Source: a virus
Taxonomy: Duplodnaviria; Heunggongvirae; Uroviricota; Caudoviricetes
Virus record (IMG/VR): IMGVR_UViG_2778261303_000003
Strand: one strand, 5' to 3'
DNA length: 11,130 nucleotides
Positions within the stretch are counted from its first letter, which is position 1; every line of letters starts with the position of its first letter. The position numbers and the translations under genes are program-made. Of this stretch, positions 507 through 7,537 are shown one piece after another. The notes below the pieces were generated by a model. It was not told where the DNA came from. It made no database searches and saw only the letters and a list, made by a program, of their open reading frames with translations.

Positions 507-791
507 TTTGTCGCTCCATGCGCTTGCTCTTCATCTAGCGGTTAAAATATTACTTCAAATCTTTCTGTATGAAGATTTGAGCACGTTGGCCTTACATACA
601 TCTGTCGGTTGTATTTCCCTCCAGAATGCCAGCAGGACCGCACTTTGTTACGCAACCAATACTATTAAGTGAAAACATTCCTAATATTTGACATAAATCA
701 TCAACAAAACACAAAGAGGTCAGACCAGATTGAAACGATAAAAACGATAATGCAAACTACGCGCCCTCGTATCACATGGAAGGTTTTACCA

Positions 792-1202
792 ATGGCTCAG
801 GTTGCCATTTTTAAAGAAATATTCGATCAAGTGCGAAAAGATTTAAACTGTGAATTGTTTTATTCTGAACTAAAACGTCACAACGTCTCACATTATATTT
901 ACTATCTAGCCACAGATAATATTCACATCGTGTTAGAAAACGATAACACCGTGTTAATAAAAGGACTTAAAAAGGTTGTAAATGTTAAATTCTCAAGAAA
1001 CACGCATCTTATAGAAACGTCCTATGATAGGTTGAAATCAAGAGAAATCACATTTCAGCAATACAGGGAAAATCTTGCTAAAGCAGGAGTTTTCCGATGG
1101 GTTACAAATATCCATGAACATAAAAGATATTACTATACCTTTGATAATTCATTACTATTTACTGAGAGCATTCAGAACACTACACAAATCTTTCCACGCT
1201 AA
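792..1202 (+). CDS. ybcV: YbcV-like prophage protein (DUF1398-type as I recall), function unknown
   Basis: Long ORF 669..1202; I place the start at the ATG at 792 ([11 protein letters not shown]..., 136 aa) because it has a GGAAGG Shine-Dalgarno 8 nt upstream. The upstream GTG at 669 and ATG at 750 lack a ribosome-binding site. Confidence 0.8.
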
Positions 1203-1492: not shown

Positions 1493-1786
1493 ATGAAAAA
1501 AATGCTACTCGCTACTGCGCTGGCCCTGCTTATTACAGGATGTGCTCAACAGACGTTTACTGTTCAAAACAAACCGGCAGCAGTAGCACCAAAGGAAACC
1601 ATCACCCATCATTTCTTCGTTTCTGGAATTGGGCAGAAGAAAACTGTCGATGCAGCCAAAATTTGTGGCGGCGCAGAAAATGTTGTTAAAACAGAAACCC
1701 AGCAAACATTCGTAAATGGATTGCTCGGTTTTATTACTTTAGGCATTTATACTCCGCTGGAAGCGCGTGTGTATTGCTCACAATAA
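1493..1786 (+). CDS. bor: Bor outer-membrane lipoprotein (serum-resistance moron of lambda)
   Basis: 97-aa ORF MKKMLLATALALLITGCAQQ... with a lipobox (LITGC); essentially identical to lambda Bor as remembered; convergent with Rz as in lambda. Confidence 0.95.
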   Translation: MKKMLLATALALLITGCAQQTFTVQNKPAAVAPKETITHHFFVSGIGQKKTVDAAKICGGAENVVKTETQQTFVNGLLGFITLGIYTPLEARVYCSQ

Positions 1787-3561: not shown

Positions 3562-4644
3562 ATGAAAAAATTAACAGTGGCAATTTCTGCTGTAGCTGCA
3601 TCAGTACTGATGGCGATGTCTGCTCAGGCAGCTGAAATTTATAATAAAGACAGTAACAAGCTGGATCTGTACGGGAAAGTTAATGCTAAGCACTACTTCT
3701 CCTCTAATGATGCAGATGATGGTGATACTACTTATGCCCGTCTTGGCTTCAAAGGTGAAACCCAAATCAACGATCAACTGACTGGTTTCGGTCAGTGGGA
3801 ATATGAATTCAAAGGCAACCGCGCTGAATCTCAAGGTTCCTCCAAAGATAAAACCCGTCTTGCCTTCGCTGGCCTGAAATTCGGTGACTACGGCTCCATC
3901 GATTACGGCCGTAACTACGGTGTAGCATACGACATCGGTGCATGGACCGACGTTCTGCCAGAATTCGGTGGCGATACCTGGACCCAAACAGATGTATTCA
4001 TGACTGGTCGCACCACAGGTGTTGCAACTTATCGTAACAACGACTTCTTTGGTCTGGTTGATGGCCTGAACTTTGCAGCTCAGTATCAGGGCAAAAATGA
4101 CCGAAATGAAGTAACTGAAGCTAATGGCGATGGTTTCGGTTTCTCAACTACTTATGAGTATGAAGGATTCGGCGTGGGTGCAACCTATGCTAAATCTGAT
4201 CGCACTAATAATCAGGTTATCTACGGTAACAACGGTCTGAATGCTTCTGGTCAAAATGCTGAAGTATGGGCAGCTGGTCTGAAATATGATGCGAACAACA
4301 TCTATCTGGCCACCACCTATTCTGAAACCCAGAACATGACTGTTTTTGGTAATAACCATATTGCCAACAAAGCACAAAACTTCGAAGTAGTTGCACAATA
4401 TCAGTTCGACTTCGGTCTGCGTCCGTCCGTTGCTTATCTGCAATCTAAAGGAAAAGACTTGGGTGCTTGGGGTGATCAGGACCTGGTTGAATATATTGAT
4501 GTAGGTGCAACCTATTACTTCAACAAAAATATGTCCACTTTTGTTGACTACAAAATCAACCTGATTGATAAGAGCGATTTCACGAAAGCATCTGGCGTTG
4601 CTACCGATGATATCGTTGCTGTAGGTATGGTTTACCAGTTCTAA
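3562..4644 (+). CDS. nmpC: OmpC/OmpF-family general porin, prophage-encoded (NmpC/Lc-like moron)
   Basis: 360-aa ORF with a typical signal peptide ([23 protein letters not shown]), porin motifs throughout and C-terminal ...VGMVYQF; sits between Q and the lysis genes in the opposite orientation, as nmpC does in DLP12. Confidence 0.92.
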
Positions 4645-5301: not shown

Positions 5302-5439
5302 TCATACTCCTGCTCCTGTCAGGGTTTTGGCGTAATTCTTCAGTATTCGGTAATCGGTCAAAACAGAACCGGGGAAACGATATAAGCGCAGGCGCACCCA
5401 GCGGCGGCGAAGACGCTCTGCCATATAAGACTCAAACAT
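5302..5439 (-). CDS. ylcG: Small basic protein YlcG-like (45 aa), function unknown
   Basis: Not in the ORF track (under 60 aa); hand translation from the ATG at 5439..5437 gives [45 protein letters not shown] then TGA at 5304..5302. Its start overlaps the rusA stop (TGATG), and it sits between rusA and Q as in DLP12. Confidence 0.6.
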   Translation of the reverse strand: MFESYMAERLRRRWVRLRLYRFPGSVLTDYRILKNYAKTLTGAGV

Positions 5440-5801
5440 CATTCATCTCCCAGTTCGGTGATGGTCAGTTCCAGCCTCCCACCTTTGGTAACAGGCATCT
5501 TCACAACGCGGTAATCAACGACCTGAGCATCATCCAGCCAGAAACCTGCTTTAGTGAGTGCGTCAAAAGCGGCTTTTTGCAGATTATCCAGGTCACGGCG
5601 ACGGCGATCCGGCATGTGGCACTCAATGCGGATTTTCACAGGCATAGCCAGGCCGATATCCAGCATTGCGTTTTTAATGATTCGGGCGACGTTATCGCGG
5701 TATGCCTGCCCTTCTGCGCTGATGTGCGTGCGCCCGCGATTATGCCGGTAGTAGCGGTTATTGCTCGGAGGCCAGGGTAATGTGATGCTGTAGGTATTCA
5801 C
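5439..5801 (-). CDS. rusA: RusA Holliday-junction resolvase (crossover junction endodeoxyribonuclease)
   Basis: 120-aa [29 protein letters not shown]... matching RusA; the initiation codon here is GTG (5801..5799), overlapping the stop of the ybcO remnant (GTGA). Confidence 0.93.
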
Positions 5802-5926
5802 GCCTTAATAACCCCCTCTTTCAGCCAGATAACCTGTGTTCTCGCCATACCTTCCAGCGCGCATTCTTTTGCATATGCAGCATCGACTTGCTTGGCATGC
5901 CCTTTACCGGCAATCTTCTGTATGCG
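5798..5926 (-). pseudogene. ybcO: 3' remnant of a ybcO-like gene (DUF1364-type); N-terminal part missing
   Basis: Hand translation of the frame ending at TGA 5800..5798 gives ...[42 protein letters not shown], matching the YbcO C-terminus as remembered, but in-frame TAG codons at 5929..5927 and 5935..5933 and no plausible start leave only about 42 codons. Confidence 0.55.
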
Positions 5927-6007
5927 CTAAACCTAGATAGAATCCACTCTGTGCATATTGAAGCCCGCTCTATGCTTCCTTTCAGGTATTGAAGGGATTG
6001 AGATGGG

Positions 6008-6355
6008 CTAAGCATTATTGGCCTCCTGCATCAGGAGAAAGACAATCATGGCGGCGCGGAGAGGTCTGGTATCAAATATTGGGCTTACGCCTTTTGCATC
6101 CACACACCATTCAGTTAACTGGTCTAAGATAGAAATCCTGTATTTCTCAATAATCGGCCATGAAGCGCTCGGATCATTGCAGTAGTCAGGCAAATGATTT
6201 AATGGCTCAAAAGTTGTATCAGCATTTCCGTAATACCATTTGTTGGTGTTATTCCCTGATGTTTCCGGTTTACTTGCCCAAAGGCCTTTAAAAATTATGT
6301 CTCCTACCATTCTGTTAATTTCAAAATCACTTAACTGTGAATAATCCATTGTCAT
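6008..6355 (-). CDS. Uncharacterized nin-region phage protein (about 114-116 aa); family not recognised with certainty
   Basis: ORF 6008..6391; likely start at the ATG at 6355 (ATGA overlap with the ninE stop) or the ATG at 6349 (GAGG 8 nt upstream). Translation [62 protein letters not shown]... No catalytic motif recognised. Confidence 0.7.
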
Positions 6356-6528
6356 TTCCTCGCACGATATCTTAGCCACCGGATATCCCACAGGTGAGCT
6401 GTGTAATTGAAGGTTTTTACGTCAGATTCTTTTGGGATTGGCTTGCGTTTATTTCTGGAGCGTTTCGTTGGAAGGTATTTGCAGTTTTCGCAGATGATGT
6501 CGGTGAAACTTCGTCGCTGTCGCCTCAT
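6352..6528 (-). CDS. ninE: NinE-like protein
   Basis: 58-aa product from the ATG at 6528..6526: [58 protein letters not shown], closely resembling lambda NinE; the start overlaps the methyltransferase stop (ATGA). Confidence 0.85.
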
Positions 6529-7052
6529 GCCGCCCTCCTGACGCCCTGCCCGATCGCCATCAATGCCGCTTTGGATACGGTAGTAAACATCCGTCGAGGA
6601 CTGATGAACGGTCGCCAAATCAGCAGCATGGAGCCTTTGCTGTTTCCCTTCTTCTCCAGCCCTGTCGATGGTTCGATAAAATTAATCCGTCCATCAGTGA
6701 TAATGCGAACTTCGTCGACACTCTCCAGAGCCTTGCTGAACCATCCGACTGACATATCCTCTGGCACAAGCATAACTACCGTCTGTCGCTGTTGTATGCA
6801 CTGCTCAGCGGCTTTTTCCACCCACGGCCTGATATTGCTGTACGGTGGGTTATTCCAGATTGCACCGTGGCTTACCCACTCAGAATTGAGCGCGTCGTCG
6901 GCCTCAGTTAGCCAGTGAGCACACAGAGCATTTTTGTCGCTCGCTGCCGAATCCAGCCAGAATCCAAACTCAATATCCAGTGCATCAAAAAGCCAAAGCG
7001 GCGTTTGCCAGCAGTCCTTGTCGTGTGCTGGCGTATTTGATTTGATAGTCAT
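6525..7052 (-). CDS. Phage Dam-type DNA N6-adenine methyltransferase (small orphan MTase, no adjacent restriction gene)
   Basis: 175-aa product from the ATG at 7052 ([26 protein letters not shown]...), containing the NPPY catalytic motif ([14 protein letters not shown]); its start overlaps the ninB stop (ATGA). Confidence 0.85.
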
Positions 7053-7489
7053 GCAGCCCGATCTCCCCATCTCGCTTTCCACTCCAGAGCCAGTCTCGCT
7101 TCGTCTGACCACTTAACGCCACGCTCTGTACCGAATGCCTGTATAAGCTCTAATAGCTCCGCAAATTCGCCTACACGCATCCTGCTGGTTGACTGGCCTA
7201 TTACCACAAAGCCATTCCCGGCAAGGTTAGGAACAACATCCTGCTGCTTTAATGCTGCGGTAAACACACACTTCCAGCTTTCTGCATCCAGCCAGCGACC
7301 ATGCCATTCAACCTGACGAGAGACGTCACCTAAGCAGGCCCATAGCTTCCTGTTTTGGTCTAAGCTGCGGTTGCGTTCCTGAATGGTTACTACGATTGGT
7401 TTGGTTGGGTCTGGAAGGATTTGCTGTACTGCGTGAATAGCGTTTTGCTGATGTGCTGGAGATCGAATTTCAAAGGTTAGTTTTTTCAT
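7049..7489 (-). CDS. ninB: NinB (Orf family recombination mediator)
   Basis: Translation from the ATG at 7489: MKKLTFEIRSPAHQQNAIHAVQQILPDPTKPIVVTIQERNRSLDQNRKLW..., matching lambda NinB. Confidence 0.93.
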   Translation of the reverse strand: MKKLTFEIRSPAHQQNAIHAVQQILPDPTKPIVVTIQERNRSLDQNRKLWACLGDVSRQVEWHGRWLDAESWKCVFTAALKQQDVVPNLAGNGFVVIGQSTSRMRVGEFAELLELIQAFGTERGVKWSDEARLALEWKARWGDRAA

Positions 7490-7504
7490 GACTTCCCTCT
7501 CCCC

Positions 7505-7537
7505 CAAATAAAAAGGCCTGCGATTACCAGCAGGCCT
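7505..7537 (-). terminator. Intrinsic terminator between ren and ninB (tR2-like)
   Basis: AGGCCTGC-gattacca-GCAGGCCT 8-bp stem (7514-7537); on the - strand it is followed by TTTTATTTGGGGG. Position between ren and ninB matches lambda tR2. Confidence 0.7.

Follow-up and report, generated by a model that had tools for sequence, protein, structure and literature searches.

An orphan Dam-type adenine methyltransferase gene in the nin region of a lambda-like phage, with a product identical to that of VT2-Sakai

The window analysed here, a stretch of 11,130 nucleotides of tailed-phage DNA, carries between ninB and ninE a gene, dam, whose product is identical to M.EcoVT2Dam of phage VT2-Sakai. Altogether, it is very likely that the gene encodes an orphan phage N6-adenine methyltransferase of the Dam type that uses AdoMet and has GATC as its target and that it is an interchangeable cassette of the nin region expressed in the lytic cycle; its benefit, which is less certain, would most likely be a top-up of GATC methylation of the phage DNA.

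Reading frame, family and genomic context

On the minus strand, the frame runs from ATG 7052-7050 to TGA 6527-6525 and comprises 175 codons plus the stop codon. An in-frame GTG at 7112, which would give a product of 195 aa, was considered as start and rejected: homologues are 175 aa long, and the matches to the family profiles set in at residues 2-4 when translation starts at ATG 7052, which is therefore taken as the start. The protein matches PF05869, "DNA N-6-adenine-methyltransferase (Dam)", at 6.4e-65 and 218.4 bits (curated cut-off 28.1 bits) over profile positions 1-167 of 169, and the NCBIfam equivalog TIGR01712, "phage N-6-adenine-methyltransferase", at 9.7e-80 and 265.9 bits (curated cut-off 97.05 bits) over positions 1-165 of 165. 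These scores are far above chance. The protein also matches PHROG 111 (phrog_111), "DNA methyltransferase". Motif IV, NPPY, is formed by N68, P69, P70 and Y71 and a motif-I-like segment by F31-x-L33-D34-x-A36; the NPPY residues as well as F31, L33, D34 and A36 are invariant in an alignment of 41 homologues. The initial annotation had read a 175-aa NPPY N6-adenine methyltransferase at this very place and had suggested a Pfam search as a check; the open reading frame lies exactly there, all three family models recognise its product, and the PF05869 and TIGR01712 profiles are matched over their full lengths.

Table 1 Features of the dam region (positions in the window)
Feature	Position	Strand	Remarks
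dam, 175-aa phage N6-adenine DNA methyltransferase	6525..7052	-	PF05869/TIGR01712; identical to M.EcoVT2Dam (VT2-Sakai orf32, NP_050531.1)
ninB/orf, recombination mediator gene	7049..7507	-	PF05772, 2e-54; directly upstream of dam
ninE, 58 aa	6352..6528	-	PF05322, 3e-42; directly downstream of dam
Mosaic cassette, 527 bp	6522..7048	-	in place of lambda 41085-42096 (ninC, ninD and first 7 nt of ninE, 1012 bp)
Intrinsic-terminator-like hairpin	7514..7537	-	between ren and ninB; 8-bp stem with 6 GC pairs (AGGCCTGC...GCAGGCCT), then T-run (TTTTATTT)

A GTG-started ORF of 174 aa on the plus strand (6394-6918) runs antisense to ninE and most of dam. It is unsupported and in all likelihood just a shadow of the coding strand.

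dam shares an ATGA with each of its neighbours: the TGA of ninB (7051-7049) overlaps the ATG of dam, and the TGA of dam overlaps the ATG of ninE (6528-6526). This arrangement, already described in the initial annotation, is read directly in the sequence, and the identity of both neighbours is confirmed by their own profiles. Judged from the overlaps, dam is probably translationally coupled to ninB and to ninE. According to PMC8022706, overlaps of this kind typify the nin regions of lambdoid phages. A literature search for a functional link between NinB and Dam found none reported.

The region was aligned at the DNA level with lambda 40000-44500. Window 7900-7049 and lambda 40233-41084, which cover the end of P, ren and ninB, share 99.5% identity; in ninE, window 6521-6355 and lambda 42097-42263 share 95.2%. 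As the initial annotation had proposed, dam replaces ninC and ninD: identity with lambda stops at the ninB stop codon and returns 7 nt inside ninE, and since nothing aligns with lambda between the two flanks, the shorter cassette has taken the place of the longer lambda segment. Junctions that coincide with gene boundaries are textbook mosaicism for the nin region of lambdoid phages.

Further along the nin operon, NinX, RusA and the Q antiterminator were identified by profile matches; the other genes in the window are those for cI, cro, cII, O, P, ren, a porin, holin, lysozyme, Rz, Bor and a DUF1398 protein. tRNA and Rfam scans of the whole window gave no matches. Downstream of ninE, the stretch 5439-6391 (minus strand) holds NinX (DUF2591), a 64-aa ORF (5821-6015) and RusA, followed by a 46-aa ORF (5302-5442) whose place behind RusA makes it the counterpart of the "YlcG family protein" annotated in phage ev243. 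At this place lambda carries ninF-ninG-ninH-ninI, and past ninE the window showed no DNA similarity to lambda, so that the operon contains a second mosaic replacement. A gene for a 360-aa porin of the OmpC/NmpC/Lc type (3562-4644, plus strand; PF00267, 1e-152) lies between the genes for Q and holin, on the strand opposite the late operon; it looks like a lysogenic-conversion "moron" and is annotated in the same arrangement in phages ev243, ev099 and mEp332. Beyond Rz, on the strand opposite the lysis genes, are the genes for the DUF1398 protein (669-1202, plus strand; 177 aa if counted from the listed GTG start) and for a homologue of the Bor lipoprotein (1493-1786, plus strand).

The nearest phages to the whole window are the lambda-like Escherichia phages ev243 and mEp332, both with a porin gene. 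ev243, the closest complete phage, is 97.8% identical over 86% of the window. The window phage is a porin-carrying phage of lambda immunity like ev243 and mEp332, and not an Stx phage. In VT2-Sakai, a Lar-like restriction-alleviation gene (15792-16034, PF14354) lies directly upstream of ninB-dam and overlaps it; in the window, ren occupies this place.

dam is widespread. At an identity of at least 95%, 1566 of 5426 complete E. coli genomes (about 29%) carry the 528-bp gene, with up to five copies per genome. Its RefSeq label in these genomes is "phage N-6-adenine-methyltransferase", and its neighbours are labelled "recombination protein NinB" and "NinE family protein". The ninB-dam-ninE DNA matches 431 phage records and the protein (tblastn) 2134, including Stx phages at 100%. 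dam is already known, routinely annotated and among the commonest accessory genes of lambdoid prophages. Its discovery value is small, given that annotation pipelines already name it and that GATC was already assigned to the identical protein.

Target sequence and predicted structure

The protein is identical to VT2-Sakai orf32 (NP_050531.1) over all 175 residues, and orf32 likewise sits between NinB and NinE. It is the sole CDS of VT2-Sakai annotated as a methyltransferase, and a six-frame scan of VT2-Sakai ORFs of at least 80 aa gave a single (D/N/S)PP(Y/F/W/H) motif, in orf32. Two other ORFs were considered as the true M.EcoVT2Dam and rejected: orf4 (299 aa, near int) has a DUF551 domain, and orf71 (2806 aa) has LPD and MuF domains only. 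Because VT2-Sakai has no methyltransferase candidate besides orf32 and identity to orf32 is complete, the dam protein is M.EcoVT2Dam.

This protein was reportedly cloned by Radlinska and Bujnicki in 2001 and assigned GATC specificity. PMC6602927, citing Radlinska & Bujnicki 2001, gives 5'-GATC-3' as the target of M.EcoVT2Dam of the E. coli prophage VT2-Sa. The initial annotation had taken the target sequence to be unknown, a view that this report on the identical protein overturns. The predicted methylation of the A in GATC by the dam product, as reported for M.EcoVT2Dam, rests on a secondary citation and on sequence identity. The laboratory behind the VT-2 Dam work also counts VT-2 and HP1 among the phages with Dam-like genes (PMC7556043).

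The window contains 29 GATC sites, against 39.7 +/- 6.1 expected; they are neither avoided nor enriched, and composition therefore lends no support to a role. One of these sites (7060-7063) precedes the dam ATG by 8 nt and falls within the purine-rich GGGGAGATCGGG, the would-be ribosome-binding region. With 29 sites in the window this is probably chance; otherwise the enzyme would have its own target at its own translation start region.

The predicted structure of the dam protein shows a class I Rossmann-like methyltransferase fold. Its closest structural match is PCIF1, an RNA cap m6A methyltransferase, and type I HsdM subunits are also among the matches; E. coli Dam, T4 Dam and DpnM reach scores of just 7.7-8.4, with some 105 residues aligned. 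Foldseek agrees with this comparison. A sequence search of the PDB with the dam protein gave no meaningful match, and no solved structure is known for PF05869. The alignment with gamma-class catalytic domains takes in about 141 of the 175 residues and every structural match is at least twice as long, so the protein is predicted to be essentially a bare gamma-class catalytic domain without a separate target-recognition domain. In catalysis, D34 in F-x-L-D-x-A-A would bind AdoMet and NPPY 68-71 would hold the flipped adenine. Since a separate target-recognition domain is missing from the model, recognition of GATC would fall to short loops or to an oligomer. It is tempting to speculate that a conserved hairpin at about residues 121-141 (R-I-x-F-I...T-G...N-x-K-G-S) and the C-terminal helix take part in this reading.

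A small protein of this kind might also achieve GATC specificity by an unusual route, such as an obligate dimer on the palindrome or help from the coupled NinB and NinE, or might have a second activity, on ssDNA or with relaxed specificity, in recombination or anti-defence. We consider this unlikely.

It is quite unlikely that the dam product is altogether a relaxed or non-specific adenine methyltransferase with a broad anti-restriction function, like Hia5 or M.EcoGI/GII, and that GATC is merely the part of its activity that was assayed. The predicted lack of a target-recognition domain could go along with low specificity, and several adenine methyltransferases are indeed non-specific: the prophage enzymes Hia5 and Hin1523 (PMC3299994), PhiOS31_p25 and its phiP27 homologue L24 (PMC7556043), and the M.EcoGI/GII homologues, which are listed as "nonspecific" (PMC6602927). 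Moreover, PhiOS31_p25 also gives resistance to MboI and sensitivity to DpnI, so that an MboI/DpnI assay alone cannot separate a GATC-specific from a relaxed enzyme. However, these enzymes belong to other families, L24 being a 352-aa PF01555 protein and Hia5 an enzyme with DPPY and FxGxG related to alpha-class Dam, whereas VT-2 Dam, HP1 Dam and PamA, all PF05869 members, are described in papers as Dam or GATC enzymes. VT-2 is still listed as "Dam-like" by the group behind the characterisation of its Dam, which went on to discover the non-specific enzymes.

Very unlikely is a physiological substrate of RNA or ssDNA, possibly bound together with a partner protein. Such a substrate is brought to mind by the MT-A70 enzyme of PA8, another "DNA adenine methyltransferase" of an Stx prophage, which methylates 16S rRNA when bound to its partner (PMC10810198) and which is set apart from dam by family and position, as detailed below. 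That the best match of the predicted structure is the RNA enzyme PCIF1 would fit in, as would the probable translational coupling of dam to ninB, which encodes an ssDNA-binding protein.

Orphan status, expression and role

The scanned ORFs of the window contain no endonuclease-like domain, complete ev243 encodes no endonuclease apart from functions in recombination and lysis, and none is annotated in VT2-Sakai. The orphan status put forward in the initial annotation, which had seen no endonuclease partner in the window, is thus borne out and extends to ev243. That dam is the modification half of a restriction-modification system with its endonuclease outside the window, which spans only 11 kb of a roughly 46-kb prophage, is hardly conceivable in view of what was found in ev243 and VT2-Sakai, of the hundreds of phages and 1566 genomes in which dam lies between ninB and ninE and shares overlapping codons with them, and of the NCBI equivalog model, which treats the family as a stand-alone phage enzyme.

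The strong hairpin between ren and ninB lies within the stretch that is 99.5% identical to lambda, upstream of both ninB and dam. Its position would correspond to that of lambda tR2. Since a tR2-like terminator precedes ninB, dam is placed in the antitermination-dependent pR transcript and, by analogy to lambda, should be a delayed-early gene that is read from pR after N-mediated antitermination. PMC3342100 counts the identical gene of phage Phi24B (CM2/dam) among the CDS with expression tied to the lytic cycle, in agreement with the delayed-early reading. The enzyme would then be made during lytic growth or induction, and not in a stable lysogen.

What does a phage gain from GATC methylation in a host that has its own Dam? 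Virion DNA of P22 and lambda is under-methylated by host Dam because replication outruns the enzyme (PMC8022706). A phage-encoded enzyme could top up GATC methylation of the fast-replicating phage DNA whenever host Dam is outpaced. The progeny DNA would then be shielded from methylation-sensitive nucleases that cut at GATC, and MutH or SeqA would find less under-methylated DNA to act on. To our knowledge, E. coli does not commonly have MboI/DpnII-type systems, a point that weakens the case for anti-restriction. Top-up methylation is the most likely and most economical benefit that we can infer, and it is the least certain part of the explanation. By analogy to PamA of Staphylococcus aureus, an effect on host or phage gene expression is possible as well.

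Comparison with known methyltransferases

Several enzymes were considered as relatives of dam and rejected. The rRNA-directed methyltransferase of Stx phage PA8 (M.EcoPA8orf6770P) is an MT-A70 enzyme with a DPPW motif that is encoded near int and has as partner PNB-2, a winged-helix gene (PMC10810198), whereas dam has NPPY, belongs to PF05869 and lies in the nin region. phiP27 L24, which is encoded next to stx, and PhiOS31_p25 were set aside because the dam protein has no PF01555 match, and Hia5 and Hin1523 because of their DPPY and FxGxG motifs and their relation to alpha-class Dam (PMC3299994). M.EcoGIX is plasmid-borne, ssDNA-specific and unrelated, and M.EcoMIV of the ST131 prophage Phi2 belongs to another family, PF02086.

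With the alpha-class enzymes E. coli Dam, T4 Dam and DpnM (PF02086), dam shares the reported target GATC, the chemistry and the (D/N)PPY catalytic motif; the PF02086 domain with an inserted target-recognition domain that marks this class is absent from the dam protein. Among the gamma-class N6-adenine methyltransferases, M.TaqI (382 residues in the matched chain) has a large C-terminal target-recognition domain, which the dam protein lacks.

Closer is PamA of the S. aureus prophage mPhi11, which matches PF05869 at 5.6e-30, is 34% identical to the dam protein, has an NPPY active site and is likewise an orphan, encoded in the replication module. Unlike dam, it has 141 aa and no C-terminal helix. 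PamA renders DNA sensitive to DpnI, which shows methylation of GATC, is inactivated by point mutations around the NPPY site (P65T was used in vivo) and alters host virulence gene expression (PMC12435837). PF05869 members are thus able to reprogram gene expression of their host; however, the host of PamA has no Dam of its own, whereas E. coli has one and already methylates GATC.

T1 Dam and HP1 Dam are also small NPPY orphans with PF05869 over the full length, at 33% and 38% identity, respectively, and HP1 Dam is cited as a Dam-like enzyme. T1 Dam is GATC-specific; it differs from dam by a 48-aa N-terminal extension and an insertion. The genomic contexts of both genes differ from that of dam.

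Identical or nearly identical copies of dam are present in Phi24B, Stx2 phage II, HK97 and other phages; the Phi24B copy is 100% and the HK97 copy 99% identical to NP_050531.1 (PMC3342100). The closest counterpart is M.EcoVT2Dam itself, the same protein in the same slot between ninB and ninE, which differs only in the surrounding phage.
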